From an uncultured Alphaproteobacteria bacterium (GTDB lineage Bacteria; Pseudomonadota; Alphaproteobacteria; Rs-D84), in NCBI GenBank assembly GCA_944389595.1, contig CALXMY010000001.1:179-64178 (forward strand): a stretch of 64,000 nucleotides of DNA, read 5' to 3'. Shown piece after piece: positions 2,914 through 43,656 of the stretch; position 1 is the stretch's first letter, and every line of letters begins with the position of its first letter. A program made the position numbers and the translations under genes. Below the pieces are notes generated by a model. That model did not search any database. It was not told the DNA's origin and saw only the letters and a program-made list of their open reading frames with translations.

Positions 2914-3405
2914 TTATATTGTTACATTCATGCAATATTGGGCGCACAGACCGATTAAGAAAGCAACGATTGACACACATACGCATACGCCCAGCATTTC
3001 AAAAAAACTTCGCATATATGGCTGTTGGTTCACGCGTCCCAAATAATAATTGAATCCAAAAATTTCGGCGACCGCGATAACGAACATTACAATCATTTCC
3101 ACCACGCGATTTGAAAATATAAAAAATGGTAATATTAATAATGCGCATGTCGCCATATATGCGCCGCCTGTATACAATGCCGATATAAATGCACGTCGAC
3201 CGCCACCCGCCCGCACCGCCAAATAATTTGATGCACCCATGGACAGACTGGCCGTGATGGATGCAATTATCGCGGTTAATATAATTGCGTATCTGTCGGC
3301 CATTGCTATGGCCAGGCCTGAAATCAAGCCGGTTAGTGATACTAATGCATCATGCATTCCCAATACGATTGCGCCGGCGGATTTAAAATTATTCTTGCGT
3401 ACCAT
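2914..3405 (-). CDS. VIT1/CCC1-family (DUF125) membrane protein
   Basis: 163 aa, multi-TM, N-terminal motif MHDALVSLTGLISGL resembles VIT family signature. Confidence 0.45.
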   Translation of the reverse strand: MVRKNNFKSAGAIVLGMHDALVSLTGLISGLAIAMADRYAIILTAIIASITASLSMGASNYLAVRAGGGRRAFISALYTGGAYMATCALLILPFFIFSNRVVEMIVMFVIAVAEIFGFNYYLGRVNQQPYMRSFFEMLGVCVCVSIVAFLIGLCAQYCMNVTI

Positions 3406-3458
3406 ATGTATTATTTTATCATTTGTGTAACAATATTTACCCCAGGTAAGAAATCATA

Positions 3459-3995
3459 ATGATACTGCCACGCGAATTTTATTTGCAAAACCCGATGGAT
3501 GCCGCGCATGAATTGTTGGGCGCGTATTTGTGTCGTGAAATGCCTGATGGTTCATTTATTCGTGCGCCAATATGCGAACTGGAATTATATCTGGAAAACG
3601 ACAGAGCATGCCATGCGTTTGGTGGACGGTGCACGTCGCGTAATGATGCAATGTTTATGATGGGCGGTCATGCGTATGTATATTTATGTTATGGATTACA
3701 TAATATGTTAAATATTGTATTGGGGCCGGCGGGAATGCCTGCGGCGGTGTTGATACGTGCGCTGGAATATGATAATTGCAATGGCCCCGGTAAATTGTGT
3801 AAAACATTAAATATTACGCGCACAGATAATAAACTGGATTTAACCGTGGGGAAACGCGTATGGATTGAACCGCGTGATGTTAATCCAAAAATTATAACTG
3901 GCACGCGTATCGGGGTTGATTACGCCGGCGCGGATGCACAACTGCCGTATCGATTTGCAATTGCAAACAGCCCATATATCAGCAAACCGATTTAG
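3459..3995 (+). CDS. mpg: DNA-3-methyladenine glycosylase (Mpg/AAG family)
   Basis: LPREFY, ELLGAYL, ELELYLENDRACHAFGGR.TSRN, MFMMGGHAYVYLCYGLHNMLNIV, AVLIRALE motifs typical of PF02245. Confidence 0.7.
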   Translation: MILPREFYLQNPMDAAHELLGAYLCREMPDGSFIRAPICELELYLENDRACHAFGGRCTSRNDAMFMMGGHAYVYLCYGLHNMLNIVLGPAGMPAAVLIRALEYDNCNGPGKLCKTLNITRTDNKLDLTVGKRVWIEPRDVNPKIITGTRIGVDYAGADAQLPYRFAIANSPYISKPI

Positions 3996-4561
3996 TTTAT
4001 TTTTATTGCCCCATCACGGACGATGTTTATATTTTCGCCATCCAATACCGCAACAGTACTGGGCGCGCCACCCATTGGTTCAAATGCGTTATCAATTACA
4101 ATTATGTTCGGAAAAGTTTTACGAATTTCGTCGGCCGATTGTAATGTTGGTTGGCCCGATATATTTGCGGATGTTGTTGCCAAACAATGCCCATCAATCA
4201 CACCGCACAGTTCCATAAATGGTTTATAGTTTGGCACGCGTACCCCACCAAACACCATGGAATCAGTCCCCGCCACCGGCACACCAATGGTCAGTGCCCC
4301 CGGCCAATATTTTTGTGCCAATTCAAATGCACGTGCCGGATAATTTGCCATGTATGGTTTAATATGTTCCAAACTGTCCGACATTATAATCAGGTGTTTG
4401 TTTGCGGGCCGCCGTTTTATTTCAAACAATGCATCCGCCCCCGCGCGTGTCGGCAACGCCCCCAGTCCCCATACTGTATCGGTTGGGAACGCAATCACGC
4501 CACCAGATTTTAAATGATTGTTTAATTCAGCAATAAATATTGCATCATGTAAATTTGTCAT
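3992..4561 (-). CDS. tsaC: L-threonylcarbamoyladenylate synthase TsaC/YrdC
   Basis: GGVIAFPTDTVWGLG motif near N-terminus; ATG at 4561 (track start 4579 is GTG). Confidence 0.7.
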   Translation of the reverse strand: MTNLHDAIFIAELNNHLKSGGVIAFPTDTVWGLGALPTRAGADALFEIKRRPANKHLIIMSDSLEHIKPYMANYPARAFELAQKYWPGALTIGVPVAGTDSMVFGGVRVPNYKPFMELCGVIDGHCLATTSANISGQPTLQSADEIRKTFPNIIVIDNAFEPMGGAPSTVAVLDGENINIVRDGAIKIN

Positions 4562-4699
4562 ATTCACCAAAATAAACACAAAAACACACGTTGTAAAGTT
4601 AAAAGTTTAAAAATCGTGGTGCTTTTTTTCTTGCATTTATACGACATATACAACAAAATCCAATGGCGTTTTTTAATTAAAGCATAAGGAGAAACCATA

Positions 4700-7387: not shown

Positions 7388-7413
7388 TTACTCGTAACTC
7401 GTTACTGGTAACC
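7388..7413. repeat. dispersed intergenic repeat unit (GTTACTCGTAAC / GTTACTGGTAAC)
   Basis: TTACTCGTAACTCGTTACTGGTAACC; related copies at 11232-11270 and 12130-12171. Confidence 0.6.
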
Positions 7414-7973
7414 TAGAAACTGTAATGAATCGCCAATCCCGTGAAATTAAATCCGCGGTTTATGTTTGTAAAATCACCATTTGAAAAATGTTGGGTAAAT
7501 AATTCAATATGCCAATCGTTTCCGATATTTTTACCAATAAAAACGCGTTCGCCGAATACCAGGCGGCTTTCGACATACCGATCGCGTGAATCACGCATAT
7601 ATGGCCCAACACCAATTCCAAAATAAAAACCGCGCCAATTTAATAGTGCCACATCCCACGACACACCAATTGCCATAAAAGACAAATCGTGATCATGGTG
7701 ATAACCGAAATTTTGAACAAATGCCACATTCATTCGCGATGGTAATCTGAAAATATCAATTGGTTGACTGTATTGCACCATCAAATTAGTCATCGGTTCA
7801 AATTCCCATAAAAACGGGTTAACCAATTTGAACATAGACCCCGGTCCAATGCCCTGGGCGGCGTATAACGCAATTGAATTTTCGTTTCCCGTTCCAAACA
7901 TTGGGTTATACCCATCGTTTGCTATTGCGGGTGTGATAATCAGTGATAAAAATATCGCGATGTACTTTTTCAT
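7413..7973 (-). CDS. outer-membrane beta-barrel, lipid A deacylase PagL-like
   Basis: signal peptide MKKYIAIFLSLIITPAIA, HFSNG motif near C-terminus (His-x-Ser of PagL family), C-terminal aromatic residue F. Confidence 0.5.
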   Translation of the reverse strand: MKKYIAIFLSLIITPAIANDGYNPMFGTGNENSIALYAAQGIGPGSMFKLVNPFLWEFEPMTNLMVQYSQPIDIFRLPSRMNVAFVQNFGYHHDHDLSFMAIGVSWDVALLNWRGFYFGIGVGPYMRDSRDRYVESRLVFGERVFIGKNIGNDWHIELFTQHFSNGDFTNINRGFNFTGLAIHYSF

Positions 7974-8164
7974 TTGAAACGAATTATACAATAAAATTGC
8001 AAATAAAAAAATAATAAAAAATTCCGCATGTTAACATCCGGTTTTCTTATTTACAGACCGCACTAAAAATGTTATAATTAAAGAAAATAAGTGGGCATAT
8101 TGTACATTAATGCGCCATAAAATAACGGAATTTCCGGGCCTTTCCGGACTACAGGGGGAGTTTT

Positions 8165-11100
8165 ATGAAAAGCCGTAATTTCGCAGATCACATAAAAAAT
8201 GCGATGGGAACAGTATTTCTGTTGGCGGGTGCGTTTTTTGTTTGTTCGACATTATTGTCGATGCGCGCCGTGTTTGCTGATCCAATTGCGCCGACCATGA
8301 CGGTATCGGCACCGACGGTTGCATCGCCGCGTACATCGGGGACGGTACGCGCATCTGCGCGTCCGGCATCATCGCGCAGCACAGCGTCATCCGTTGTATC
8401 GCGTGGCACGGCACAAACACAAAATGTTGCACCATCACGTGGGGTGACATCACGCGCAATTGTCTCGCGCGGTACGACCACGCCGGTAACATCGCGGGTT
8501 AATACAACAACGGCATCGCGTGCAACGGCATCGGGTCGGCCCAGTACAACGGTTTCGCGCCCCGCGGCGGCAACGGCCGCAAATTCACGTGGGGTAACAT
8601 CACGTGCGGTTGTATCACGTGGTACCGCATCAAATACGGTTTCGCGTGTGGCGGCGAATAATACAGCACGCAGTGTTCGTTCACGCACGGCGACAACGCC
8701 ATCGCGCATTTCATTACAGGGCAGTGCAATCCGTGGCAGCAAGGCCGCCGTGAATTCCAATACATACACATATCTGCAAAGCAAATTATATACGGGTAAT
8801 TATTCAAATATTATTGACTCGTCAACCGGTCTGATTTCGGCCGAGGCTTATAATAACTGTATGGAATCATATTATGCATGTATGGATGAAATTTGTACCG
8901 CACGTAATGCGGCACAACGTCGCTGTGCATGTGCCGGCCGTGTCAAGGCATTTGCCGAGGCCGAAGCCGCACTGGAACAGGCGAACGAGGAATTAATCAA
9001 GGTTTCCGGTGAATTGGCGTTGTTGGTAGCAACCAAGGGCAAAGATATCAGCCAGGCTTTCCAATTAACAGACGCTGAAAAGGTTATGAACTGTGTTTCA
9101 TGGAAGGAAACAACCGATAAATATGGTACTGATTCTGAAGAGGCCCAGGATTGGTGCTTTAACCATGGTATATATGACGGCAATGGCAAAGGACAAAGCC
9201 CGTGCGGCCAGCCATCATATTGTTCGTCATCGGGTAATACATTCGGATTTGATATTGCAAATATAGACGGCTCCAGCAGTGATATTTTGGCATCACTGCA
9301 ATCATGGGCCGATGCAAAGGAAAATACATTAACAATTATTAGCGATGATACAGACAGTTTGACATCGGCATTTGAAAACCTGACCAGTGTTGTGGGCAGT
9401 TTGGCCGGCATTGATGGTGCTTTTGCAGATTCTGGTGATCTAAAGGATTCGTTGGCTGAAACATGGGGCTATGAATTATTTGAATACGCGCACAATAACG
9501 TTTGTAACCGCGTGTTGGATTCTTGCTTTAACGGCATATACGAAGCGTGCGGTACCCCACCGACCGGTGGCGCAAAATGTGGCAACGGCCGTTCACAATG
9601 TCCGTATAATTACAACAGTTATATATCTGTATCAAATACTGGAACATATGAATTGAACTTTATTGAACCAAATACGGGATATACGGCATCTAATTCGGCA
9701 ACGTGTTTTGGTTATACAACCGCATCCGGTGACCCGTATGCAGATTTGCGTGGTCCAGTGGCGGATGCACGTCGCAGCATTATGCAAAAATATGCGTTGG
9801 ATGCCAATGCCGATTGCGATGCATATGGTGAACAATTAAGTACGGCCGCCCAAAATATTGGCTATCAAAAGGTTGCCGCACAACAGGCATTGCAACAAAA
9901 ACGTTTGGAATTCGCCCAAGAGGAAGAAACAACCATCGCATCAGATTACAAGGCTGCGCGTGATAACTTTAATGAATGCTTGGCCGAATTGTATGATTGC
10001 TATACAACCCAGGAAACGGCGCAGCCGAACTGGAGTACCAGCCGCATCAAAACATATTGCGCCCAGGTATCAAATGTTCCGCATTGCTATGAAGAAATGA
10101 TTTGCAGTGCCCCGAACAATATATTACAGGCCGTTATTGACAAAGAAGACGACAGAACCAAGAAGTGTACGAATTCAACTGACTTTGACACTAATACATG
10201 TCGCAATATCATAACACTGTCTGAAATCTTAAGTGGCACATATGCTGAAGGTGCGGTAGAGGATTCGTCAGTTGCCCTGCGCGAGGCATGTCTGCAATCG
10301 ATTGATATCGAAGGTGTTCGTTCATGGCGCAGCAAGAATACCAGTGATGATGCTGGCTGGACCAGCCCACAGTGCCCGGATGGTACACACGAAGAGAACA
10401 GTGCGTGCGTGCCAAATACACAGGAATGTGATGCCACTGGATTTACAGATCCCAATGCAGCAAAGGGGGTTCAAACATGGGATTCTGTTAAGGAAACTTG
10501 GGGACCGTGTGTGTTAACAGAATGTAAGGGTGATTATTATGCATCAAATGGACGTTGCATACCATGCGGTGAAAATACCCATACCGAAAACGGTGCATGT
10601 GTACCGAATACTAAATCATGCACGCACACCGATCCAAATGTGTCAACAGCAACGCAAACATGGAATTCGAGCAGTTGGGGTGCATGTACACCGCAATCAT
10701 GCCGGTTAGATTACGTATTGAGTGATGGTAAATGTATAGCCAAGGTTCGGGTATGTAACAGTGGTGATCCGTATGCAGCCACCGGAACCCAACAATGGGA
10801 CGAGGAAACAAAAGAATATGGCCCGTGCCAGGTTCGTACATGTATTGCCGGATATGTATTGGATAATGGCAAATGTATCAGTAATTCACGCCAGTGCACC
10901 CATTCTGATCCGAATGTTGCAAATGCTGTGCAACAATATGATTCCGCGAGTGGACGCTGGGGTGATTGCGTGGCCACATCATGCGAAGCCGATTATGCAT
11001 TAACGGCGGATAAAAGATGCGTGGCCAGCGAAACCAGTTGTAAACATACCGATCCAAATGTTGCGACGGCATTTCGCACATGGAATGGCAGTACGTATGG

Positions 11101-11188
11101 CGCGTGTTTGGCGCGGACCTGCGTTGCCGGATATGAATTGAATGGTAACACATGTGTGGCGATTGCAACGCCCGGTACCGGTGAATAA
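8165..11188 (+). CDS. large secreted protein, S/T/R-rich repeat region plus Cys-module repeats (paralog A)
   Basis: 1007 aa; GGGGGA SD; signal peptide; VSRGT/TSR repeats; conserved block NCMESYYACMDEICT...QRRCACAGRV; seven ~40-aa modules C.H.DPNV...Q.W.....G.C....C...Y.L..GKCI. Confidence 0.7.
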   Translation: MKSRNFADHIKNAMGTVFLLAGAFFVCSTLLSMRAVFADPIAPTMTVSAPTVASPRTSGTVRASARPASSRSTASSVVSRGTAQTQNVAPSRGVTSRAIVSRGTTTPVTSRVNTTTASRATASGRPSTTVSRPAAATAANSRGVTSRAVVSRGTASNTVSRVAANNTARSVRSRTATTPSRISLQGSAIRGSKAAVNSNTYTYLQSKLYTGNYSNIIDSSTGLISAEAYNNCMESYYACMDEICTARNAAQRRCACAGRVKAFAEAEAALEQANEELIKVSGELALLVATKGKDISQAFQLTDAEKVMNCVSWKETTDKYGTDSEEAQDWCFNHGIYDGNGKGQSPCGQPSYCSSSGNTFGFDIANIDGSSSDILASLQSWADAKENTLTIISDDTDSLTSAFENLTSVVGSLAGIDGAFADSGDLKDSLAETWGYELFEYAHNNVCNRVLDSCFNGIYEACGTPPTGGAKCGNGRSQCPYNYNSYISVSNTGTYELNFIEPNTGYTASNSATCFGYTTASGDPYADLRGPVADARRSIMQKYALDANADCDAYGEQLSTAAQNIGYQKVAAQQALQQKRLEFAQEEETTIASDYKAARDNFNECLAELYDCYTTQETAQPNWSTSRIKTYCAQVSNVPHCYEEMICSAPNNILQAVIDKEDDRTKKCTNSTDFDTNTCRNIITLSEILSGTYAEGAVEDSSVALREACLQSIDIEGVRSWRSKNTSDDAGWTSPQCPDGTHEENSACVPNTQECDATGFTDPNAAKGVQTWDSVKETWGPCVLTECKGDYYASNGRCIPCGENTHTENGACVPNTKSCTHTDPNVSTATQTWNSSSWGACTPQSCRLDYVLSDGKCIAKVRVCNSGDPYAATGTQQWDEETKEYGPCQVRTCIAGYVLDNGKCISNSRQCTHSDPNVANAVQQYDSASGRWGDCVATSCEADYALTADKRCVASETSCKHTDPNVATAFRTWNGSTYGACLARTCVAGYELNGNTCVAIATPGTGE

Positions 11189-11202
11189 TTCCGATGTTAA
11201 AA

Positions 11203-11228
11203 AACGCCCCACCGGGGCGTTTTTTAGG
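11203..11228 (+). terminator. rho-independent terminator (AAAAACGCCCC-accg-GGGGCGTTTTT)
   Basis: same stem sequence as 7364 terminator. Confidence 0.8.
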
Positions 11229-11231
11229 GGA

Positions 11232-11357
11232 GTAAATAGTTACTGGTTACTCGTAACTTGTTACTCGTGATACCCCCGTCGTGCAAAGCACGCCCCCCCA
11301 CGTTCCACCTACGCAAACTTTGTTTGCGTGGGTGGTAAGCTGCGGGGTGGTAAGAGA
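11232..11357. repeat. mosaic intergenic repeat blocks
   Basis: GTAAATAGTTACTGGTTACTCGTAACTTGTTACTCGTGA, CGTGCAAAGCACGCC and GGGGTGGTAAGAGA blocks shared with 12130-12260. Confidence 0.6.
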
Positions 11358-11427
11358 ACTCAAGAATATACGCTTGTGTCTTTCCTTGTTATCGATGTGT
11401 TTTGTTGAAAAAATTATGCAAAACGCT

Positions 11428-11456
11428 TGACTTTTTATAAAAAAATGTTAATTTTG
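11428..11456 (+). promoter_or_regulatory. putative sigma70 promoter of rplU-rpmA
   Basis: TTGACT ... 16 nt ... TAATTT, about 50 nt upstream of rplU ATG. Confidence 0.35.
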
Positions 11457-11505
11457 TAGAAAACTTTAGACAAAATGAACAAGAACAATAACAAGAGAAA
11501 GACAC

Positions 11506-11805
11506 ATGAGCAATATTGCAATCTTTCAAACCGGCGGCAAACAATATCGCGTGAAAACGGGTGATGTTATAAAGGTTGAACGCCTGAATGCCGACGGCAC
11601 GGTCGAATTTGACCAGGTTTTAATGCTGGACGACAAAATCGGCACACCGTTTATCGACGGCGCGCGCGTCGTGGCCCAGGTTGTGGAACAAAAACGTGGG
11701 GACAAGGTTTTGGTGTTCAAGAAAAAACGCCGTCACAACTATCGTCGCACACGTGGCCATCGCCAGTATATCACTGTGTTGAAAATTACGGAAATCAAGG
11801 GTTAA
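11506..11805 (+). CDS. rplU: 50S ribosomal protein L21
   Basis: [27 protein letters not shown] typical L21 N-terminus. Confidence 0.9.
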
Positions 11806-11829
11806 TCCCCGGATATAAGGAGTTTAATT

Positions 11830-12096
11830 ATGGCACATAAGAAAGCAGGTTCGGCAACCACCAACGGACGCGATTCGGCGGGCCGTCGTTTGGGCGTTAA
11901 AAAATCCGGTGGCAGCCGTGTTATTGCCGGCAACATCATTATTCGCCAACGTGGCACATCTGTGCATCCTGGTCTGAACGTCGGTATGGGCAAGGATCAC
12001 ACACTGTTTGCGAAAATTGCGGGCATTGTGAAATTTAAACGTGGTTTGGGCGATCGGAAAACTGTTTCCGTCATACCCGAAGACCAGGTAAAATAA
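11830..12096 (+). CDS. rpmA: 50S ribosomal protein L27
   Basis: [28 protein letters not shown] typical L27. Confidence 0.9.
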
Positions 12097-12126
12097 AAAA
12101 CGCCCCCACGGGGCGTTTTTTTTCAG
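12097..12126 (+). terminator. rho-independent terminator (AAAAACGCCCC-cacg-GGGGCGTTTTTTT)
   Basis: same stem family as 7364 and 11203. Confidence 0.8.
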
Positions 12127-12129
12127 GGC

Positions 12130-12260
12130 GTAAATAGTTACTGGTAACTCGTTATTCGTTACTCGTACTCCCCATCATCCGTCGGGGGCGGCGGGGTGGT
12201 AAGAGAGTGCGTAATTTGGTAACTGGTTCCCATTGTCATCGCGTGCAAAGCGTGCCGCCC
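12130..12260. repeat. mosaic intergenic repeat blocks
   Basis: GTAAATAGTTACTGGTAACTCGTTATTCGTTACTCG, GGGGTGGTAAGAGA, CGTGCAAAGCGTGCC shared with 11232-11357. Confidence 0.6.
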
Positions 12261-12389
12261 AACTGGTGTTGTTTAATTGGGGAAACTGCGCTGAACATCG
12301 GATTATCACATATGCGGTTAAAATCGCAAATTGTTACGAATTTTCATCTTTTATGCGGCCCGCAGTTGTGATATAATTACTTAACAAGT

Positions 12390-14744
12390 ATGAAAAAATT
12401 ATCATTGTGTCTTTTTATAATCGCGTGTTTTGCGCCGTTGGTTGTTGCCAATGGGGCATCGCGCGTGATTCCGTCGTTGGGTGTATCGACCGGTGACAAT
12501 GCCAATTCCACTGGTTCGCGTGACGCATCCGTTATCGCGGCGCGTGTAAAAACAACACGTTCGTCTGTGACACCGCCTGCAACAAATACGGATACGGTAA
12601 CAGCGCGTGATACATCTGCGCGTGCGGTGGTAAATCGCAGTGGTGCGACACAATCTGATAATGTTTCAAAATCTGATGTTGTACGTGTTGGCTCGCGTGT
12701 TTTGAATATAAACGGCACATCCACACCAACAACGTCTGGGCGTGGTTCAACAAATGTGCGCAATACTGGTGCCGCGTCGCGTGTTGGTTCGGCCCAGGTA
12801 CACACAAATACCGCGCGCGAAAATCTGGAGGCAACGGTCAATACCGTTGGTCGTAATTCACGGGTAGAGGCGGCCAGTATAAATAATAATCCCGCGGTGC
12901 GTCGTGCCGGGTTAACACTGCGCCCATCCACGGCCGAGGTTGGCGGTCGCGCCACAATTGCGGGCACAGATATACAAACAGGTTCAAACATTGACGAACA
13001 AATTCGCGGTGTGCAAACACGTGCGGCCACAAATGTACCAACCACTGAATCCATTGCCGAGGCCAAAGAACGTTTGGATTTAACATCTGACTTAAATGCA
13101 TCATGTCAACAGCAATACAATGATTGCATGGATCAATTCTGTAATGTTATTGATGCAAACCAGGGACGTTGTTCATGTTCGGCAAATTTGGCAAATTACA
13201 CCGATGTAGAAGAGGCCGTAACCGATGCAAATAATAAATTGAACGAGGTTGCCCAACAAATTCGCTATGTCGGATTAACAGCGGATGAAATACGCGCAAT
13301 TATGAGCGAGACCGAGGCCGAAGCGGCCTTGTCCGGGGCCAAGGATACATCGGAAACACGCAATATGTTGGAAGAAATCGAAAAATTAATTCGTGATCCA
13401 TCGGGTTCCAGTTCGACATATTCGTCAAATTCGGTGTCATTGGGTTTGGATATGGATTTGGATTTTTCATCCGATATTGCCGATATATTTAATTTGGATT
13501 TTCTGAATTTAAACACGGGCAGTTTTTCAAACCTGCGCGGAACCAGTTTATATAATGCGGCAAAAAATCGTTGTCGGGTTGTTTTGAATCAATGCGAAGA
13601 GGCCGGCGCAAATATTGATCAAATCACCGCAAATTACGATTTGGCAATTGACAAGGATTGCATTGCGTATGAACAGGGCCTGACCAAAATGAACCAAACA
13701 TTGGTTTCAAATGTGCGCAGTGCGAATTTGATGCTGCAAAAGGCGCGATTGGCAGTGTTGCAAAATAAAAATCAATACGATGCCAAGGGATGTATTGCGG
13801 CATTGGATACATGTATGACCGATGAAATGGTTTGTGGTGCGGATTATACAAAATGTCTGGATCCGACCAAGCGATATATTGATGAAAACGGCAATGTTGT
13901 TTTGGGCCAGGATATTACCAATATTTTGGATTTTATGGCAGATTATAATAATGCAAATATTGTTTCGGATTTCTTGTCTGAGTCATACGGCAGTGAAACG
14001 TACTTTGACGAAAAATATTGTGCCGGCGAAGGTAATGATGGGCGTTGTGTTGTAAAGTATCTGTTGCAGAAAATCGGTACCAAAGAAGACAGCACCGCCG
14101 AAGGTTTATGCCGTCCTGTTTTGGATAAATGCCAGGCATATACATATGATGAAGATGGTAAGTATCAGAAATATAATGATATAGTTGTAAATTATATCCA
14201 GCGTGCAATGGTGAATATCCAGGCGGCTCAGCGTCAGATTATATCTGATTATGCGTCAAATTGTATGCTGGATGTTGCAAACTGTTATAATCAACAGGTA
14301 ACACAGGTAAACGCATGGTCCACCAGTGCCAGTGTAAGCAGTATATATAATGTTATGCGTGGTGCATGTCGTAATGTGGCATTGACGTGTGCATATGCAG
14401 TATTTGCCAATGATACTGCCAGCTGTCCAGACGATGCAGGTCAAGAGGACACATGCATAGAAAGTATATCGCAAATGTTCTATCAATCATTATTGTGCCC
14501 GGATAATTCAAAGTATAGTTCAAGTTGTAAAACCCAGATTAATACTGAGGGAACATCATGTGTTAATGATATGTGTGAATGTTTGTCTGGTTATGACCCG
14601 TGGGCCGGTACACAATGTTTGCGTGAATGCCCGGATAATGCGGAACCTAAAAGGAATGCATACGGGCAATGTGTGTGCAAAACCGGATACACAATGCGTA
14701 ATGGTTTATGCGTTGCGGATAATACATCTGGGTCTGGTGCCTAA
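12390..14744 (+). CDS. large secreted protein, S/T/R-rich region plus Cys-rich modules (paralog B)
   Basis: 784 aa; signal peptide MKKLSLCLFIIACFAPLVVA; T/S/R-rich N-terminal region; conserved block SCQQQYNDCMDQFCN...QGRCSCSANL matching paralog A; C-terminal EGF-like CECLSGYDPWAGTQC. Confidence 0.7.
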   Translation: MKKLSLCLFIIACFAPLVVANGASRVIPSLGVSTGDNANSTGSRDASVIAARVKTTRSSVTPPATNTDTVTARDTSARAVVNRSGATQSDNVSKSDVVRVGSRVLNINGTSTPTTSGRGSTNVRNTGAASRVGSAQVHTNTARENLEATVNTVGRNSRVEAASINNNPAVRRAGLTLRPSTAEVGGRATIAGTDIQTGSNIDEQIRGVQTRAATNVPTTESIAEAKERLDLTSDLNASCQQQYNDCMDQFCNVIDANQGRCSCSANLANYTDVEEAVTDANNKLNEVAQQIRYVGLTADEIRAIMSETEAEAALSGAKDTSETRNMLEEIEKLIRDPSGSSSTYSSNSVSLGLDMDLDFSSDIADIFNLDFLNLNTGSFSNLRGTSLYNAAKNRCRVVLNQCEEAGANIDQITANYDLAIDKDCIAYEQGLTKMNQTLVSNVRSANLMLQKARLAVLQNKNQYDAKGCIAALDTCMTDEMVCGADYTKCLDPTKRYIDENGNVVLGQDITNILDFMADYNNANIVSDFLSESYGSETYFDEKYCAGEGNDGRCVVKYLLQKIGTKEDSTAEGLCRPVLDKCQAYTYDEDGKYQKYNDIVVNYIQRAMVNIQAAQRQIISDYASNCMLDVANCYNQQVTQVNAWSTSASVSSIYNVMRGACRNVALTCAYAVFANDTASCPDDAGQEDTCIESISQMFYQSLLCPDNSKYSSSCKTQINTEGTSCVNDMCECLSGYDPWAGTQCLRECPDNAEPKRNAYGQCVCKTGYTMRNGLCVADNTSGSGA

Positions 14745-14772
14745 AAAAAGCCCAATTAATTGGGCTTTTTTA
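14745..14772. terminator. bidirectional terminator hairpin
   Basis: AAAAAAAGCCCAATTAATTGGGCTTTTTT between convergent genes. Confidence 0.7.
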
Positions 14773-15459
14773 TGCGGTTATTTTTTCCATAAATTTATTA
14801 TGTGCGTCCAATTCATCCGCGTGTGCGGGAAATTCACGGTGTGGAAAATTTGCGCCTATTTTGGGGTGTGCCAAAAATGCGGCGTGTTGCTGTTCAATTA
14901 TTTCCTTTGCATCCGGGGCGGGCGCAGTGTTTTCCAATTCTTTATATACCTTGGCCAGAATTTCGGCATCAATCAATGCCCCGTGCGCATCCGCACGCGC
15001 CGTTAATGATATTCCGTACCATTTGGCCAATGCATCCAATGTATAACTTTTGGGACCAAAAACACGGTTGCGCGCAATTACAATTGAATCCAATTGTTGT
15101 GCACGTGGTATTTCCGGCAGCCCAATCATACGTAATTCATGATTAATAAACGGAAAGTCAAAATCCAATCCGTTATGCGCAACAATCGGACTGTCGCCAA
15201 CAAATTCCAAAAATCGTGGCGCAACAACCGCCATTTTTGGTTTGTCTTCTAAAAAAGCATTGGAAATTTTATGAACCATATACGATTCGGGCGGAATTAT
15301 TTTGCCATCGGGATTAATATATTCATGAAATGTATTATCAGTAATTGTGCCATCAATCATTTCAACCGCACCAATTTCAATACAACGATCGCCACGCATA
15401 TATTCAAAACCGGTTGTTTCAATATCAAAACAAATAATACGCCCCATGCCTGTCCCCAT
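14770..15459 (-). CDS. dnaQ: DNA polymerase III epsilon subunit (3'-5' exonuclease)
   Basis: ICFDIETTG exo I motif, HNGLDFDFPFI exo II, HGALIDAEIL exo III. Confidence 0.8.
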   Translation of the reverse strand: MGTGMGRIICFDIETTGFEYMRGDRCIEIGAVEMIDGTITDNTFHEYINPDGKIIPPESYMVHKISNAFLEDKPKMAVVAPRFLEFVGDSPIVAHNGLDFDFPFINHELRMIGLPEIPRAQQLDSIVIARNRVFGPKSYTLDALAKWYGISLTARADAHGALIDAEILAKVYKELENTAPAPDAKEIIEQQHAAFLAHPKIGANFPHREFPAHADELDAHNKFMEKITA

Positions 15460-17639: not shown

Positions 17640-18938
17640 TTAGTTTTTTTTACGAATGGTTTTAATAATATCTTTGCCTTGTTTGGTAACGTTACCCCAA
17701 ACTTTTTTGATATCATTACTAAATTGTTGACTGAATGTTTTATCGATTTTCCCGCCCAGATTTTCCGCAATTTCATTTGCGCGACTGGCCAAATACGCAA
17801 CCAATATGCCGGTTAATAATGTTATCATAAATCCGGAATTTTCCAATGTTGGAACCGATGCGGATGCATCCACGCTGATTGTGCCTGATAACAGTGCGGC
17901 ACACAGCGCAATTACAATTGATAACGATACAAAATAAATTGCTGCATCTATGAATCTGGATATTTGTTTTGATAATGATTCTGGTTTGAACAGGCCCAAA
18001 AATCCATTGTATATATCACCAACAATACCCTTGTACGATGTTTGGTTTATTGTTTCGGCAATGGCGGTAAACGGTAACATCGCAACCCCCAGAAATAAAT
18101 CAATAATTACCCCCAATCCCATTAATGCAAATTTAAAGGCATTGTATACGAACACAACAATAAATATTAATCCAACCAGCATTGTAAACGCACTGTGCCC
18201 AATACCAGAAATCATCCATTTCCACCCAATTGAAATCGCGGTTGTGAAAAATCCAGATAATCGTGTTGGAACGCATAATATATTTGCGGTGGCTTCGGCA
18301 TCCAATATCATGTTTTCAGATACGTGTTGTGCAGTATATGCATGTATTGCCCCGCACGTATCCGGAATTTGTAATCCGATTGTATTTGATACCGCGTTTA
18401 ATATTAAATCAGACAAATATGTACCAATACTGATAATCGGCCCCATAATCCACATAAATAATTGTGCGGGTCCGAATGCCAATATAATCGACCAAATTGC
18501 AATTACCGCGCCCTTTTTTACCAGATTTTCACCCAAATCCATTGCACTGGTGCCTTTGGTCATCATGTTATATGTTTCAAATATTAACCAGAATACATAC
18601 GCGATAATCATGAATATTATTGCAAATCGTACCAACGATGCATCCAATATATCCGCAATAACAGACATCGCATTAATCAGTGCCAAACCTATTTTCGCCT
18701 CGATTGGAACATAATCAGGTACGGATTGTGCATTTTGGAACCCGGATTGAAATTCAACCATATCGGTTCCAATTGCCATGTTAAATTGCGCCATATTATC
18801 ATCGGTCATCCAATTGCCATAATCACCGATTTCTGTTAATGGTAAATTTGATTCGGCCCCGATTGCATACGGCATAATAAACATGCATGCGATTGCAACC
18901 ATAATAATTTTTACAAAGATGCGTTTCAGTATTTTCAT
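17640..18938 (-). CDS. polytopic membrane protein, TrbL/VirB6-like, paralog 1
   Basis: 432 aa; signal peptide, periplasmic segment, >=6 TM helices, Lys-rich C-tail with NLGGK motif; start ATG overlaps stop of upstream paralog by 1 nt. Confidence 0.55.
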   Translation of the reverse strand: MKILKRIFVKIIMVAIACMFIMPYAIGAESNLPLTEIGDYGNWMTDDNMAQFNMAIGTDMVEFQSGFQNAQSVPDYVPIEAKIGLALINAMSVIADILDASLVRFAIIFMIIAYVFWLIFETYNMMTKGTSAMDLGENLVKKGAVIAIWSIILAFGPAQLFMWIMGPIISIGTYLSDLILNAVSNTIGLQIPDTCGAIHAYTAQHVSENMILDAEATANILCVPTRLSGFFTTAISIGWKWMISGIGHSAFTMLVGLIFIVVFVYNAFKFALMGLGVIIDLFLGVAMLPFTAIAETINQTSYKGIVGDIYNGFLGLFKPESLSKQISRFIDAAIYFVSLSIVIALCAALLSGTISVDASASVPTLENSGFMITLLTGILVAYLASRANEIAENLGGKIDKTFSQQFSNDIKKVWGNVTKQGKDIIKTIRKKN

Positions 18939-20383
18939 TACTTTTTACCAACCGCATTTGATATGATACCGAATATTTGCTTTGGTGTGTTCCATATTTT
19001 TTTACCTAAATCTTTTGCCCATGTTCCAAAATCAAATTGTTCACCTTTACCGGCCTTGTCCAATCCGAATATGGCGGAAACTTTTGGTTTAATGGCCCAA
19101 AAATACAATGCGAATAATAATATCATCATCAACAGAAAATCCCATCCGTCGCGCATAAAATCAAATGCACCGGGATATTCGCGTTCAATTGTTGCGCGTT
19201 GCGCGGTAAAACAGTCACGGAATTTATCGGCATCCATTTCACCGTCAGCGGTTGCGACCTGTTCGCATGTGGAAAATACATTTATTATCGACATTGTTTG
19301 GGCATCAGGATTTTCAACAGTGCGCCCCATCATTGGCGGTAAAATCGCGCTGTATCCGTCCACAGGCCCCGGGAAATACGCATCAGCGGCATATGCAACG
19401 ATGGCATACGTTAATATAACTTTCAAAGTAATACTGATAATTTGAACAGCGGATTCCACCAATTTATTAATTGCATTTTTTACAACCCCACTGGCCAAAG
19501 ACCATGTTTGTTCAAATGCCGCCGCCCCCAATATCAGTGGCAAAAATATGATATAAAACACCAATTTAAATATTACTGATAAAACCTGGAATACTAAATC
19601 GAATCCGATTATCAAAAACATCAAAACCAATGTCAATCCGGCCAGCCATGTAAATACGCCACCGCCCAAATCCAACCATGCATAATTCATTAACGAAAAA
19701 CCGCCCGCCGCGCCGGCCAACATGACGCTGTTAATGTTTCCCATAACGCACATAAAAGGTTGTAATATTGGTGCCAATACATTATCAGATGCATTCGCGG
19801 CATCAATTGCACCACATTGCGCGGCATCCGATACCCCAGATGCCGCCATTGATAATTCGGCACCAACAAATAACACCGGTGTAATTGTAATGTTCGCAAC
19901 CGTGCGCAATGCCGCCGTGCCGCCCATCCCCAGTGCACCCATCAGTGCGCCAACAATTAATACGCGTGCACCCTGTCGCCATACTTTGTCAAACCAGCCG
20001 GCCAATTCCAGTTTTTTTTCTTTTTCATCCAGTTTTGCTGTTTCTTTGGCCGCATTAAAAATATATTGCCCCGTGTGCACGAATAAAAATAATCCGAATC
20101 CAATGGCCAATAAAATCCAAATGTTATCAACCATGGCGGTCCAAAACATTTCGGCCGCATTACCGATAACAACAAATAAATCCTCGATATATTTGCACAG
20201 AAAACATCCATTCGCAGATGCAATATCGCCGTCACCCGCACCAATTGCGTTTAAAAAGCCATCCATACTGGTATATGTTATTGCATCGCCACTGATTGCT
20301 GATGTCAAATACCATATACCAACGCCGATTGCTATCAGCGCCATGGCAATTTGTATGGCAATCATAATCAGTTTTGCTTTCAC
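18938..20383 (-). CDS. polytopic membrane protein, TrbL/VirB6-like, paralog 2
   Basis: 481 aa; GCFLCKYIEDLF CxxC motif, multiple TM helices, C-tail DLGKKIWNT..KK; GTG start at 20383 overlaps upstream stop (alt ATG 20365). Confidence 0.55.
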   Translation of the reverse strand: MKAKLIMIAIQIAMALIAIGVGIWYLTSAISGDAITYTSMDGFLNAIGAGDGDIASANGCFLCKYIEDLFVVIGNAAEMFWTAMVDNIWILLAIGFGLFLFVHTGQYIFNAAKETAKLDEKEKKLELAGWFDKVWRQGARVLIVGALMGALGMGGTAALRTVANITITPVLFVGAELSMAASGVSDAAQCGAIDAANASDNVLAPILQPFMCVMGNINSVMLAGAAGGFSLMNYAWLDLGGGVFTWLAGLTLVLMFLIIGFDLVFQVLSVIFKLVFYIIFLPLILGAAAFEQTWSLASGVVKNAINKLVESAVQIISITLKVILTYAIVAYAADAYFPGPVDGYSAILPPMMGRTVENPDAQTMSIINVFSTCEQVATADGEMDADKFRDCFTAQRATIEREYPGAFDFMRDGWDFLLMMILLFALYFWAIKPKVSAIFGLDKAGKGEQFDFGTWAKDLGKKIWNTPKQIFGIISNAVGKK

Positions 20384-21591
20384 TTCTTTTCTGCGCTTTG
20401 GTTTTTATTATCGTCTTTCTTTTCGCCGCCATTCAATATATTTTTACCGATATTTTTGGCGACATTTACAACATTTGTTGTCAATTTCATTGCGTCGTCA
20501 GCCAATTGTTCGCTTAATTTATTATCAGGCGACACGCCGAACGATTCCCATACCATTGATGTAACCTGGGGAATTTGTCCATATATAAAGTTTAACACAT
20601 ATATCAATATTATGCATCCACCAACAGTCATTGCGGCCAAATTATCATCTGATAAATCTTCTGCGAAAATATTGCCACTGGTAATTAAATCCATAACTTC
20701 GTTCACACTTTGCCCCGGTTCAGAAAAGAATTTTGCAATTATCACCATAATAATTGTATATGTCAGCACCGCAGATACCAATGCGATAATTGCATTTATC
20801 AGTTTTTTAAATTGATTGGTGCCAACCTCTTTGCCCAACCCAGACATCCATTTTGGGGCATCATCGCCCTTGAACGCGACCAATATTAATGACAATGGGA
20901 AAAAGAATGCGAAAAACGTCATTGCCACAATGATATCGGCAAAATAAAAGCAAAATCGTACAAATAATTTGAAAAATCCATAAAACAGATACAGCCCGAT
21001 AAAAAATAAAATAATATGTTTAATCAGTGAACCAATGCCAAACAATGCTTTTAATGAAAAAGCTTTGTCCATAACAGCAATACCCAATTTCATATATGAT
21101 TGAAATTGTGTAATTGTTGTTTTCATCAACATAATGATAGTATCGCGCAATTGTGGACGATAAAATCCATCATCGGACATTTGCATTGGTTGATATGTAA
21201 CTTTTTCATTAACGATGTCGTTATCAGTGTTTAACATGCTGTGCGTATAAATCAGTGCGATATTTGCCGCCGGTTCAAAAGTTATTGTCGTAATAAAGCG
21301 CGGCAGCATTACCCCCATGCTTAAAAATGTTAACGAAACCAATGAATTTATTAACAGTGGCTTTAAAGATTTCTGATACCATGGATCTGTTATTCCACCT
21401 TTGATATTTTTCCATACAGCGTTTATTACATAAAATGCAAACAATATGCAAAACAGAATGGCACAGAAAATTGCAAATTGGTTATATACTGATGCGGCCG
21501 CATCAGATACAATTTGAAACAAACGGTCAAATACCGGGCAACCCCAACATTGCACCGCAGAATCAACCAAAGAATTCATAAAATCGTTCAT
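20380..21591 (-). CDS. polytopic membrane protein, TrbL/VirB6-like, paralog 3
   Basis: 403 aa; QCWGCPVFDRLF CxxC motif; multiple TM; C-tail NIGKNILNGGEKK; ATGA overlap with paralog 4 stop. Confidence 0.55.
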   Translation of the reverse strand: MNDFMNSLVDSAVQCWGCPVFDRLFQIVSDAAASVYNQFAIFCAILFCILFAFYVINAVWKNIKGGITDPWYQKSLKPLLINSLVSLTFLSMGVMLPRFITTITFEPAANIALIYTHSMLNTDNDIVNEKVTYQPMQMSDDGFYRPQLRDTIIMLMKTTITQFQSYMKLGIAVMDKAFSLKALFGIGSLIKHIILFFIGLYLFYGFFKLFVRFCFYFADIIVAMTFFAFFFPLSLILVAFKGDDAPKWMSGLGKEVGTNQFKKLINAIIALVSAVLTYTIIMVIIAKFFSEPGQSVNEVMDLITSGNIFAEDLSDDNLAAMTVGGCIILIYVLNFIYGQIPQVTSMVWESFGVSPDNKLSEQLADDAMKLTTNVVNVAKNIGKNILNGGEKKDDNKNQSAEKK

Positions 21592-22883
21592 TTCTTTTTA
21601 ATCCATCCAAATGCGGTTCCCAGTGTTTTGCCCAAATTTTTAACGTTTTTCTGTAATACTTTTGTGTCGCCTTTGACCTGGTTGTATAAATTATCCATTC
21701 CCTTGCCCACGTATGAATCCAATTGTTCGCGTGTCAGATTAAATATACGAAACATTAAATAAAATGTTAATATCGCAGACAGCCATAATATTGAATGTTC
21801 ACCAAATCCCAATGCATTGGTCGCCACAGATGGTACATTTGATGTCGATGTTCCGCCGGCCGCAACAACAAATACAGATGAATTCCATCGGAATAACGAT
21901 TTTACGATCGCAATATTTACGCATAATATAAATGCGCATGCGATTGTTGTTATAACGATTTTTTGTAATGCCTTGGTTATGCCGCCGAATGCCGGCCATA
22001 TGTCCAGCCATTTTTCATTTGATTTTACCACATATGTTAAAACCTGAAACGGATACATTATTAATGCCATGCCAAAATTAAATATTGCCTGGATTATCAG
22101 CAATGCCATAAATAAATTACTGGCCACAAATGTGAATATTAAAATTATTCCTGTGACAATGTTTAAAAAGTCTTCGCCACCATGTGGAATCAGCGTTATC
22201 AGCCCGCGCAATCCGGATGTTACAAAATCAAATCCGCGTTTTATTATTTGATTGTTGGCATTTGATATATCGGATACCGGTTGGACCAGAAATTCGCAAC
22301 TTTCGCGTGTAATCCAGCCTTCTTGGATTATTGATTGCGGACATTCTATTTTTTTACCCGATACGCCGGCCTCGTTAATTGTATTGGTAATACTTTCGGT
22401 ATAATATGCGCCAAATTGCAGAAATGGGTTAATCAGCCATTCTGTCATATACACAGGTTTTAATTGCAATAAAATAGTTACCGCGATAATGGCGCGAATT
22501 GCCGGTTTTAACATATTTGTTGCAATTGTCATACCGCTGATACCATCGGCCATTTCGCCACCACCAGAAAATCCAAAAAAACCGACCCATGTTTTCGGAA
22601 AATATAATTTCAGCAAATACATTGCCATTGATACGATTAAAAATCCCCACACTAAAATATAAATAATACCGTCGCCATTGCCGACAAAAAATTCATATCC
22701 GCCGGTTGCGACCGCCATCAACGCATCCAATATTGTTGGAATTAATGGTGCCAAATTCAATGCATCAACAATTGCATATTGGGCGGCATTTGCATCAATC
22801 GGGGTACACAAAAACACGGCCAAAACCACCAATGGTATTGCGCGAATAAATATATTATAAACTATCGATTTTATAAAAAACAT
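21588..22883 (-). CDS. polytopic membrane protein, TrbL/VirB6-like, paralog 4
   Basis: approx 431 aa from ATG 22883 (track start 22910 is TTG); signal peptide MFFIKSIVYNIFIRAIPLVVLAVFLCTPIDANA; multiple TM; C-tail NLGKTLGTAFGWIKKK. Confidence 0.55.
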   Translation of the reverse strand: MFFIKSIVYNIFIRAIPLVVLAVFLCTPIDANAAQYAIVDALNLAPLIPTILDALMAVATGGYEFFVGNGDGIIYILVWGFLIVSMAMYLLKLYFPKTWVGFFGFSGGGEMADGISGMTIATNMLKPAIRAIIAVTILLQLKPVYMTEWLINPFLQFGAYYTESITNTINEAGVSGKKIECPQSIIQEGWITRESCEFLVQPVSDISNANNQIIKRGFDFVTSGLRGLITLIPHGGEDFLNIVTGIILIFTFVASNLFMALLIIQAIFNFGMALIMYPFQVLTYVVKSNEKWLDIWPAFGGITKALQKIVITTIACAFILCVNIAIVKSLFRWNSSVFVVAAGGTSTSNVPSVATNALGFGEHSILWLSAILTFYLMFRIFNLTREQLDSYVGKGMDNLYNQVKGDTKVLQKNVKNLGKTLGTAFGWIKKK

Positions 22884-22933
22884 TCTCTCGGTATTATTTT
22901 GTCTTTTCAATTATATCACATTTAGGGCAAAAT

Positions 22934-24241
22934 ATGATATACTTAAAAACAATGAGCAAGTTAAAAAAATTCTGGATTATTTTTTTATCGTTCCTGCCGT
23001 TTTCGGCGGGTGCCGCGGCACCGTTGGTTATTGGGGCAATTGCGGGATTGGGGGTTATTGCCGGATTTTCGATTTACAGAACGGCCGCCCCGGTAAATAT
23101 GGCAGATTCATTGAATTTTTTTTCCAGTTGCTGGTCGTGCCAGATGTTTTCGGACATAATTGCAATAATGTCCGGATTGGTTCCGCGGGTGTATGATGCG
23201 TTGGCTGGCGTTATTATACCGTTTGCGGCGGTATTAATGGCAATATGGTTTGCATGGAAATTGCTGTCTGGTTTTATAAATACAAAAATGGATGAAACAT
23301 GGTCGTTGGTTGGCGATTTTGGGACGAAATTTATAAAATTGGCTTTTGTTTCGGCATTGTTATTAATTCCATTACCACGGTTATTGACTGATATTGTAAT
23401 TGAACCGGTATTTAATGTCGGTTTGTCGTTAAACAGAATTGTTTCCGGAAACGACGAATTTGCAAAATGTGTTGTTGCGACTGCGGTGGCAGATCCGACC
23501 GCCGCCAGTGTGGATGCCGCATCATCGGGCGCGTTTTCGCCACAATTGCGCCATAATTTGACATGTGAAATTGCAAACATGCATCAAATGACCGGATTGG
23601 GAATGACGGTCGGGTGGACAATGCTGAACATGGCATTTAATGACGAATATATGCATCATATTTTATGGGTAATCCCAATATTTCCAAATGTGCCGATTTT
23701 CTTTGCCGGGTTATTAATATTGGTTGTATTCTTTTTCGCGTTATTACCAGTTCCCCTGTATTTTTTGGAGGTTTTTATAAAACTGGCCATGGATTTGGTA
23801 ATGTTGCCATTTATGCTGTTGTCATGGTTATTTGATGGATGGGCCATATTTCCAAAGGGCGGCCGTAATATAAAAAATATGATAAATGATGTGATAAAGG
23901 GCACCCTTGGCATCGCCATGGTCGGGGTTTTTGTTACGTTTTCGGTAATGTTTTTAAACGCCGTGTTTGGCCAGTGGCGCGGCGCGGACAGATTGGCCCT
24001 GGCATTGGCCGAAAACGATTCGACAATTTTGATGGATGGTTTGTTAATGCGAAATGACAGTATTATCACTATCTTATTAATGGGGCTGTTTTTTGCAATG
24101 TTTATGACAATGATACCTGCGCTGGTAAAATCTATATTTACCAATGTGGAAATTCCGAATACATTCTACGAATCGACCAAGAAAAATTTAAATATTGTGT
24201 GGGGAAACATGAAAAAATGGTACACATCACTAAAAAAATAA
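22934..24241 (+). CDS. polytopic membrane protein, TrbL/VirB6-like, paralog 5 (divergent)
   Basis: 435 aa (alt start 22952); signal peptide, SCWSCQMFSDII CxxC motif, multiple TM, C-tail KKNLNIVWGNMKKWYTSLKK. Confidence 0.55.
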   Translation: MIYLKTMSKLKKFWIIFLSFLPFSAGAAAPLVIGAIAGLGVIAGFSIYRTAAPVNMADSLNFFSSCWSCQMFSDIIAIMSGLVPRVYDALAGVIIPFAAVLMAIWFAWKLLSGFINTKMDETWSLVGDFGTKFIKLAFVSALLLIPLPRLLTDIVIEPVFNVGLSLNRIVSGNDEFAKCVVATAVADPTAASVDAASSGAFSPQLRHNLTCEIANMHQMTGLGMTVGWTMLNMAFNDEYMHHILWVIPIFPNVPIFFAGLLILVVFFFALLPVPLYFLEVFIKLAMDLVMLPFMLLSWLFDGWAIFPKGGRNIKNMINDVIKGTLGIAMVGVFVTFSVMFLNAVFGQWRGADRLALALAENDSTILMDGLLMRNDSIITILLMGLFFAMFMTMIPALVKSIFTNVEIPNTFYESTKKNLNIVWGNMKKWYTSLKK

Positions 24242-41862: not shown

Positions 41863-41890
41863 AAAATGCGCCAACGGCGCATTTTTTTAT
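41863..41890. terminator. bidirectional terminator hairpin
   Basis: AAAAAATGCGCCAACGGCGCATTTTTTTA. Confidence 0.7.
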
Positions 41891-42504: not shown

Positions 42505-42519
42505 GTTAAGTCCTTTTTT

Positions 42520-43092: not shown

Positions 43093-43196
43093 AATAATTC
43101 CTTTTGCTTTTTCCCATAACAATATAGTACAAAATATAATATTGTCAATATATAAAATGAAAAAAATATTTTTCTCGTGTTATGGGAAAAATATTT

Positions 43197-43271
43197 TGGC
43201 AGTCCCAACGGGAATCGAACCCGTGTTACCGGAATGAGAATCCGATGTCCTAACCGCTAGACGATGGGACC
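43197..43271 (-). tRNA. tRNA-Glu (anticodon CTC as read)
   Basis: own fold: acceptor GGTCCCA/TGGGACT, D-arm TCGTCTAGCGGTTAGGACA, anticodon stem TCGGA/TCCGG with loop TTCTCAT, T-arm GGGTTCGATTCCC, discriminator G, CCA encoded. Confidence 0.75.
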
Positions 43272-43617: not shown

Positions 43618-43656
43618 AAAGTGTTTTTTTATTTTTTTACCAAGGGGGGTTAAATT

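Follow-up and report, generated by a model that had tools for sequence, protein, structure and literature searches.

Organization of the locus

We analyzed a stretch of 64,000 nucleotides (nt), hereafter the window, from an uncultured Alphaproteobacteria bacterium of the GTDB lineage Rs-D84 (assembly GCA_944389595.1, contig CALXMY010000001.1, positions 179 to 64,178 of the forward strand). Two of its genes, which we call A and B, lie on either side of the ribosomal protein genes rplU and rpmA. A preliminary description, made from the letters of the window, had presented A and B as giant, secreted paralogs with cysteine modules, duplicated around a ribosomal operon. The list of open reading frames (ORFs) confirmed both frames and the rplU-rpmA pair between them; the word giant is an overstatement for A and B. 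Cysteine accounts for 49 of the 1007 residues of A and 34 of the 784 residues of B, against about 1% in the proteins of neighboring genes (11 of 886 in PpdK), and a C-[MLIV]-D-x2-C motif was found in A and B only among the ORFs of the window. The parts of the two genes are as follows, with protein positions in amino acids (aa) and a slash at the putative cleavage point.

8165..11188 (+): gene A, 1007 aa, 49 Cys, A-type family member (ORF list)
8165..8278 (+): A aa 1-38, putative signal peptide or signal-anchor, MKSRNFADHIKNAMGTVFLLAGAFFVCSTLLSMRAVFA/DPIAP, read from the sequence
8279..8761 (+): A linker, aa 39-199, Cys-free, Arg/Ser/Thr-rich and of low complexity, x-S-R-x recurring, 72-84% S/T/R/A/V
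8762..10369 (+): A core, aa 200-735, 24 Cys, predicted mostly alpha-helical
10373..11164 (+): A module array, aa 737-1000, itemized in the next three lines
10373-10426 and 10565-10618 (+): A short 2-Cys hairpins, aa 737-754 and aa 801-818
10427-10564 and 10619-10753 (+): A long 4-Cys modules 1-2, aa 755-800 and aa 819-863
10754-10894, 10895-11038 and 11039-11164 (+): A long 4-Cys modules 3-5, aa 864-910, 911-958 and 959-1000
12390..14744 (+): gene B, 784 aa, 34 Cys, B-type family member (ORF list)
12390..12455 (+): B aa 1-22, putative signal peptide, MKKLSLCLFIIACFAPLVVANG/A, read from the sequence
12456..13007 (+): B linker, aa 23-206, Cys-free, S/T/R/N/A/V-rich, opening with a conserved SRVIPS
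13008..14495 (+): B core, aa 207-702, about 22 Cys, collinear with the A core
14496..14741 (+): B tail, aa 703-784, one short hairpin and two C-x-C modules

A conserved cysteine-rich core relates A to B

The strongest similarity between A and B lies in a block of the form C-x6-C-M-D-x2-C-x9-C-x-C, to which the preliminary description had already drawn attention and which proved to be well supported. The block runs C232-x6-C239-MD-x2-C244-x9-C254-x-C256 in A (nt 8858-8932) and C239-x6-C246-MD-x2-C251-x9-C261-x-C263 in B. BLASTP aligned the two proteins across the linker and this block with an E value of 3e-12, and hhalign on the block gave 96.8%. In a joint alignment the cores were collinear over about 500 aa, with 21-24% identity and 14 invariant Cys columns, and hhalign of the A and B ortholog families returned a probability of 92.4% (E 5e-7, 387 columns). 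Across 59 diverse family members 12 Cys columns were invariant, with profile matches spanning positions ~5-498 of 499; invariant Cys columns and a collinear core of ~500 aa are thus what places A and B in one family. They are distant, ancient paralogs, the duplication being judged old from the 21% identity of the cores in the joint alignment and from the profile comparison. Internal repeats within the core, based on recurring C-x6-C helices, were considered and rejected: segment-wise hhalign scored only A1-B1 (96.8%), a match of A3 to A4 reflecting overlapping segments.

AlphaFold2, given 74 sequences, modeled the A core as mostly helical with a predicted local distance difference test score (pLDDT) of 48 and a predicted template modeling score of 0.29, and the segment said earlier to be coiled-coil-like was also predicted helical with low confidence. 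Median identity to the window was 73-76% for the A and B cores, compared with 65-68% for PagL and 83-85% for RplU and DnaQ. Since the cores fall between these neighbors, they evolve at an ordinary rate.

The tails are variable arrays of cysteine modules

Seven tandem modules of ~40 aa had been proposed for the end of A. Tandem Cys modules are indeed present, but they are not of equal size, five being long with 4 Cys and two short with 2 Cys. Similarly, the CxC modules reported for B are there as two copies of the pattern C..N(A)......G.C.C..GY.....G.CV, accompanied by one short hairpin. After the last Cys module both proteins end in short acidic, Gly/Pro-rich stretches. A 60-aa unit of A comprising a short and a long module (aa 801-860, 25 unit sequences) was predicted to form a series of beta-hairpins, with a pLDDT of 93.5.

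In their design the modules resemble EGF-like/cEGF and TNFR- or furin-type repeats, which are small tandem modules of ~20-45 aa made of disulfide-closed beta-hairpins and which form rod-like extracellular stalks. The terminal hairpin, C-x2-G-Y-x4-6-G-x-C-V, resembles the C-terminal half of cEGF. Unlike EGF and TNFR repeats, the long module of A bears the signature C-T-H-S/T-D-P-N-A...Q-T-W...W-G-x-C, which was unmatched in the scanned libraries. The EGF superfamily threshold was not reached, cEGF scoring 13.3 bits on protein A against a cutoff of 26.6; on the module units it was the best Pfam entry, below threshold (E 0.019, 12 of the 25 units). EGF_TEN (Teneurin EGF) stopped at 22 bits against a cutoff of 65, and Pfam EGF matches to the B tail were all sub-threshold. 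Because the library searches were negative and the hairpins were modeled, we regard the modules as EGF/TNFR-like in construction, not as demonstrable members. The preliminary description, which had recognized no named domain in them, is therefore partly upheld: there was no significant Pfam, NCBIfam or PDB match, and these are not plain EGF or TNFR repeats.

The arrays differ widely between relatives. By regular expression and alignment of the family proteins already retrieved, the number of modules among A orthologs ranged from 0 to 5, and B homologs measured 744-1356 aa, their tails extended by many C-x-C modules. Across 123 full-length representatives of the family the tail varied from 1 to 1684 aa, with ~7% Cys. 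In four distant members (P0245, P0247, P0248 and P0345) the tail carried PF09479 (Listeria-Bacteroides) repeats at 33-74 bits against a cutoff of 27, downstream of the core and thus where A and B have their Cys modules, and in one distant member an ephrin-receptor-like repeat (PF07699) lay above threshold in the tail downstream of the core. PF09479 and PF07699 are domains of extracellular or surface proteins. A and B themselves contain no PF09479 repeat above threshold, and their core is unrelated to internalins or Bacteroides surface proteins.

The same division between core and tail was seen at strain level. Between the window and a 99.5%-identical strain (L085), codons 1-735 of A differed by 4 synonymous and 0 nonsynonymous changes; in codons 736-1007 the counts were 3 and 6, and several of these 6 substitutions alter the charge. 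A fragment of a second strain showed more substitutions in the A tail. The A core thus appears to be under purifying selection. In B, most strain differences belonged either to the linker or to a single loop (aa 674-692). The variable module number, the surface-type repeats of relatives, the confinement of A strain changes to the tail and the ordinary rate of the core together fit a fast-evolving, outward-facing stalk on a conserved core.

N-termini and arginine-rich linkers

The N-terminus of A has a long charged n-region, an h-region (TVFLLAGAFFVCSTLLS) and the cleavage motif AVFA/DP; that of B has MKK, a hydrophobic stretch and the small-residue motif VVANG/A, its orthologs reading MRRLPLCFFLIAFSAPLAFA/DG at the same site. 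Judged by eye, A, B and 123 relatives with the same N-terminal layout all show n-, h- and c-regions, in agreement with the signal peptides proposed earlier, and from these sequences we infer that A and B are exported via a Sec-type signal peptide. In A the N-terminal 43 residues are nearly invariant among orthologs, far above the linker that follows. B has IIAC at aa 10-13, where orthologs have LIAF or LIVA, and A has FFVC and no lipobox; accordingly, neither protein has a conserved [LVI][ASTVI][GAS]C lipobox. Anchoring of B as a lipoprotein is unlikely because the lipobox of this strain is not conserved in orthologs, and this candidate was rejected.

The S/T/R/A/V-rich regions of the preliminary description are real and Cys-free in both proteins (about aa 39-199 of A and aa 23-206 of B), and x-S-R-x recurs all along them. 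Its near-exact DNA tandem units in A were not recovered: the linker DNA holds two 41-nt copies (8435-8475 and 8585-8625) that are 83% identical and 150 nt apart, with a 15-nt sub-period (a 5-aa S-R-x-x-x) beneath them, and Tandem Repeats Finder reported just 2.5 copies at 8585-8622. In the 123 full-length representatives the linker had a median length of 157 aa and consisted of 85% S/T/R/A/V/G/P/N/Q; Arg made up 11% and Lys 1%, and Cys was all but absent. Such a bias of Arg over Lys in a genome of 42% GC suggests selection for arginine specifically.

A further protein of the window has a linker of this kind. The gene at 32136-33572 (+), just after murG in a cell-wall gene cluster, encodes a 478-aa Cys-free protein with a predicted Sec-type signal peptide (ending LPAFA/G), an Arg/Ser/Thr-rich linker much like those of A and B, and a C-terminal region of ~120 aa that by eye is OmpA/MotB-like; that C-terminus had no Pfam match. 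Envelope proteins of this lineage may generally carry Arg-rich linkers.

A family of uncultured gut Alphaproteobacteria

A profile search of 1.84 billion cluster representatives (clusters at 50% identity) returned 648 clusters at E<=1e-3, of which 462 reached E<=1e-10 and 206 reached E<=1e-30, and A and B each had >1000 homologs. In a scan of one genome per GTDB species, 285 stretches encoded a relative. The best 80 of these 285 all carried intact A-type orthologs, 68-86% identical, and came from uncultured alphaproteobacterial, Enterousia or 'Rickettsiales' metagenome-assembled genomes (MAGs) of the human, chicken, sheep, deer, yak or termite gut. The only names attached to homologs were 'hypothetical protein', Candidatus Enterousia intestinigallinarum and a 'Rickettsiales bacterium' MAG. 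All 123 full-length representatives had a hydrophobic N-terminus, and their cores a median of 20 Cys. By these searches the family is undescribed and restricted to Enterousia / Rs-D84 and to uncultured Alphaproteobacteria of the gut that are related to them. Two loci bear other names. CAVGNU010000001.1 (L046), titled 'Bacteroides fragilis', has the full Enterousia order ppdK-PagL-A-rplU-rpmA-B-dnaQ-uvrD at 71-95% protein identity, and CAZJGX010000015.1 (L010), titled 'uncultured Muribaculaceae', has A, rplU and rpmA; both are mislabeled bins whose taxonomic labels are wrong.

The organism is Candidatus Enterousia of the order Rs-D84, often deposited in GenBank as 'Rickettsiales bacterium'. Rs-D84/Enterousia genomes are below 1 Mb and are without the tricarboxylic acid cycle, respiration and standard transporters, so that Enterousia has been proposed to be an obligate symbiont or parasite dependent on other cells (PMC12306168). 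The guess that the DNA belonged to a host-associated bacterium was thus sound. MreB, RodA and MrdA are present in the lineage (PMC12306168), and the window itself encodes mraY, ftsW and murG of peptidoglycan synthesis.

Searches against known families placed A and B in none of them. Neither had a significant Pfam or NCBIfam match, only three sub-threshold, unrelated ones appearing at Pfam E<=1, and profiles of the core and of the modules found nothing among PDB sequences. PHROGs and PADLOC yielded nothing meaningful for A or B, and a phage or defence origin was rejected on this basis. No enzymatic or toxin domain was detected in the ~20 family members scanned. Among 19 other ORFs of the window that were scanned, there was no Dsb-like thiol-oxidoreductase match, most having no Pfam match at all.

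A and B as candidate surface proteins

Taken together, these results lead us to propose, with a probability of about 0.5, that A and B are exported envelope or surface proteins in which a conserved core bears a variable display tail, most likely acting in an adhesin-like manner. According to this proposal, both proteins would leave the cytoplasm through Sec, as their N-terminal signal sequences predict. In the oxidising extracytoplasmic space the ~20-24 conserved Cys of the core and those of the tail would form disulfides, as their invariance implies. The Cys-free Ser/Thr linker of ~160-185 aa, rich in Arg and not in Lys, would join the N-terminus to the core and probably serves either as a flexible spacer or, through its charge, as a tether to anionic polymers of the envelope. 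The conserved function of the family would reside in the core of ~500 aa, which is mainly helical in prediction. The tail would be a stiff stalk of disulfide-closed beta-hairpin modules whose copy number and surface residues change fast between species and strains, and its replacement in other members by Listeria-Bacteroides or ephrin-receptor-like repeats is a pattern typical of an outward-facing binding part. The proposed role is that of a cell-surface attachment protein of a metabolically dependent bacterium. That A and B are exported and disulfide-rich, as stated at the outset, is supported, with Sec export and disulfides both predicted from sequence. The suggestion of surface adhesins or effectors fared less evenly: surface exposure gains from the variable modules, the repeats of relatives and the tail-confined changes in A, and a function as adhesin or effector is an inference.

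Several observations weigh against a surface location or an adhesive role. The organism is diderm (the window encodes PagL, a TolC-like protein and a resistance-nodulation-division pump), and the features looked for by which A and B might cross the outer membrane or be anchored in it, namely an autotransporter barrel, a conserved lipobox and a recognizable C-terminal sorting signal, were all absent. Because the organism is diderm, a purely periplasmic location is conceivable. The strong conservation of the A N-terminus could mean that it is an uncleaved membrane anchor. The A-core model is unusable at its pLDDT of 48, and no binding site or fold supports any function. Finally, the strain comparison comprises only 13 codon changes, for which Fisher's test is estimated at ~p 0.07.

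A second explanation, which we consider about half as probable as the one we prefer, is a serious rival. Here A and B would be structural proteins of the periplasm or envelope, the N-terminus sitting at the inner membrane or peptidoglycan, the linker spanning the periplasm, and the core and stalk stiffening or organizing the envelope, by analogy with the disulfide-cross-linked cysteine-rich envelope proteins of Chlamydia or with TolA/FtsN-like spanning proteins. No outer-membrane export signal was found, a nearly invariant N-terminus of 43 residues in A is unusual for a cleaved signal peptide, the protein at 32136-33572 pairs a similar linker with a C-terminus that by eye is OmpA/MotB-like, and in all species examined the cores are conserved, changing about as fast as ordinary proteins. 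A structural element of this kind is harder to reconcile with a tail whose length varies strongly between species and to which strain-level amino-acid change in A is confined, or with relatives carrying Listeria-Bacteroides and ephrin-receptor-like repeats, typical of exposed proteins. In addition, since the organism has peptidoglycan synthesis genes (mraY, ftsW and murG; MreB, RodA and MrdA), a chlamydia-style substitute wall is unneeded. OmcB and OmcA resemble A and B, as predicted here, in being envelope proteins that are exported through Sec, are very rich in Cys and belong to a bacterium of reduced genome that depends on a host; OmcB also acts as an adhesin. They differ in that no sequence similarity to A or B was detected (neither belongs to the Pfam families of chlamydial cysteine-rich outer membrane proteins), that the A/B core is predicted helical, and that the present organism keeps its peptidoglycan synthesis genes.

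Release of A and B as soluble effectors or toxins acting on host epithelium or neighboring microbes is a less probable explanation again. Predicted Sec export and disulfide richness, which stabilizes proteins outside the cell, would suit such a role, as would the dependent lifestyle of the organism (PMC12306168) and modules built like eukaryotic extracellular ones. However, the members scanned lacked any enzymatic or toxin domain, the variable part consists of repeats and not of the alternative catalytic domains of a polymorphic toxin, there are no dedicated secretion genes in the conserved neighborhood, and a basic linker suits tethering more than release.

There is also a bolder reading, to which we attach a low probability, slightly below that of secreted effectors. 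On this reading A and B would be a new kind of protein of an envelope-spanning attachment organelle in an obligately cell-dependent gut alphaproteobacterium. The N-terminus would be fixed at the inner membrane or peptidoglycan, through the A-type signal-anchor or the Ala-Asp-type mature N-termini that several relatives show, and the envelope would be threaded by the Arg-rich linker. A new disulfide-stapled helical fold would bear the fast-evolving hairpin stalk, which would recognize a specific glycan of the host or a specific partner cell. Were this correct, the specificity of Rs-D84 for its host or partner would depend chiefly on A and B.

That the ORFs are artefacts of annotation or assembly, or decaying pseudogenes, can be dismissed: only the low-complexity N-terminal regions speak for it, and it is refuted by identical intact ORFs on independent metagenome assemblies, intact orthologs in the best 80 of 285 GTDB stretches, invariant Cys columns and a core evidently under purifying selection.

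Among known adhesins of host-associated Alphaproteobacteria, the Rickettsiales Sca proteins and other type V adhesins share with A and B a large size, repeats and, as predicted for A and B, Sec dependence, but A and B have neither their C-terminal beta-barrel translocator nor the beta-helix of the passenger; no Pfam beta-barrel translocator matched, and the C-termini are short, acidic and Gly-rich. The general class, modular, repeat-bearing, Cys-rich exported proteins, is familiar, and no new biological principle is involved. What A and B add are two candidates for definition as new domain families: the CTH(S/T)DPNA...QTW hairpin module and the core, predicted helical, in which ~20-24 Cys are conserved. 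The guts of humans, livestock, birds and termites commonly harbor Enterousia / Rs-D84 bacteria, whose mode of attachment or interaction is undescribed (PMC12306168). Two conserved genes of 0.8-1 kaa (thousand amino acids) are a sizeable investment for a genome of <1 Mb; because of this, and because a family of >600 clusters is unnamed in databases, A and B are natural first candidates for the interaction machinery.

Neighboring genes, expression signals and other features of the window

The surroundings of A and B contain the following elements.

7413..7991 (-): PagL-like lipid A deacylase gene, Pfam PagL E 2e-11, divergent from A
8050..8078 (+): promoter-like site of A, TTTACA-17-TATAAT, TG-extended, 11/12 matches, by consensus match only
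11200..11226 (+): intrinsic terminator after A, AAAAAACGCCCC-ACC-GGGGCGTTTTTT, read directly from the sequence
11506-11805 and 11830-12096 (+): rplU (L21) and rpmA (L27), context outside the family (ORF list)
12095..12121 (bidirectional): terminator after rpmA, a palindrome with A- and T-run flanks, 12 pairs, 6 GC

The promoter-like site lies 87 nt upstream of the ATG of A, with a Shine-Dalgarno sequence GGGGAG at 8155-8160. The terminators after A and rpmA are near-identical, of the form A6-stem-T6; the one after A (11200-11226) was absent from the output of the terminator scan. Each of the two genes has a promoter-like site of its own and is set apart from rplU-rpmA by a terminator; A and B thus look like separate transcription units. 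Upstream of A the window has ppdK and the PagL-like gene, and downstream of B a dnaQ-like exonuclease gene and uvrD; ppdK, PagL, A, rplU, rpmA, B, dnaQ, uvrD is also the commonest order among related loci. The PagL-like gene adjoins A in most of them, and in some other species A and B are adjacent, inverted or apart. The flanking of rplU-rpmA by A and B is therefore inherited synteny, not an operon, and the earlier idea of a duplication around the ribosomal operon does not fit paralogs that are 21% identical, separated by terminators, apparently transcribed independently, and adjacent or apart elsewhere. An identical A protein was found on 7 metagenome contigs (human-gut-type, with the same gene order) and identical B proteins on 16, so that both ORFs are undisrupted in independent assemblies. 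Ribosomal_L21p and L27 were matched by Pfam on metagenome contigs identical to the window.

The two terminators are part of an intergenic repeat of ~110 nt, present after A (11200-11357) and after rpmA (12095-12206) with no other copy in the window. It comprises the A6-stem-T6 terminator, GTAAATAGTTACTGGTWACTCGT with GTTACTC sub-repeats, and GGGGTGGTAAGAGA. Among 85 loci it was confined to the same species and L004, and it had no Rfam match, an Rfam scan of 7900-14900 giving only sub-threshold chance matches. Upstream of B, the 130 nt at 12189-12318 hold 11 of the 32 nt differences from the 99.5%-identical strain, a local hotspot in a putative regulatory region.

Some rearrangements were noted nearby. 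In L046 (3970-5304) the PagL-like gene is present in two tandem copies on the opposite strand relative to the window, and PagL is also on the plus strand in seven further loci, indicating that the region just upstream of A is rearranged in some species. In the metagenome scaffold L003 (2434-6201; compare 2914-4579 of the window) the block of VIT1, purine DNA glycosylase and Sua5-YciO genes upstream of ppdK is tandemly doubled, the first Sua5 copy being truncated, either because the strain carries a duplication or because of an artefact of assembly.

Farther downstream, at 17640-24241 of the window, five consecutive ORFs have hydrophobic N-termini and no Pfam match at E<=0.1, and may form a block of lineage-specific membrane or secreted proteins. 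Four of them, encoding 432, 481, 403 and 440 aa, are read from the minus strand; the fifth, of 435 aa, lies on the plus strand. On identical metagenome contigs, uvrD is likewise followed by genes of 432, 481 and 403 aa. Further ORFs without a Pfam match encode 388, 184 and 197 aa (489-2908) and 205, 200, 123 and 310 aa (41887-45067), so that orphan genes are unusually frequent in the window for a genome of <1 Mb.

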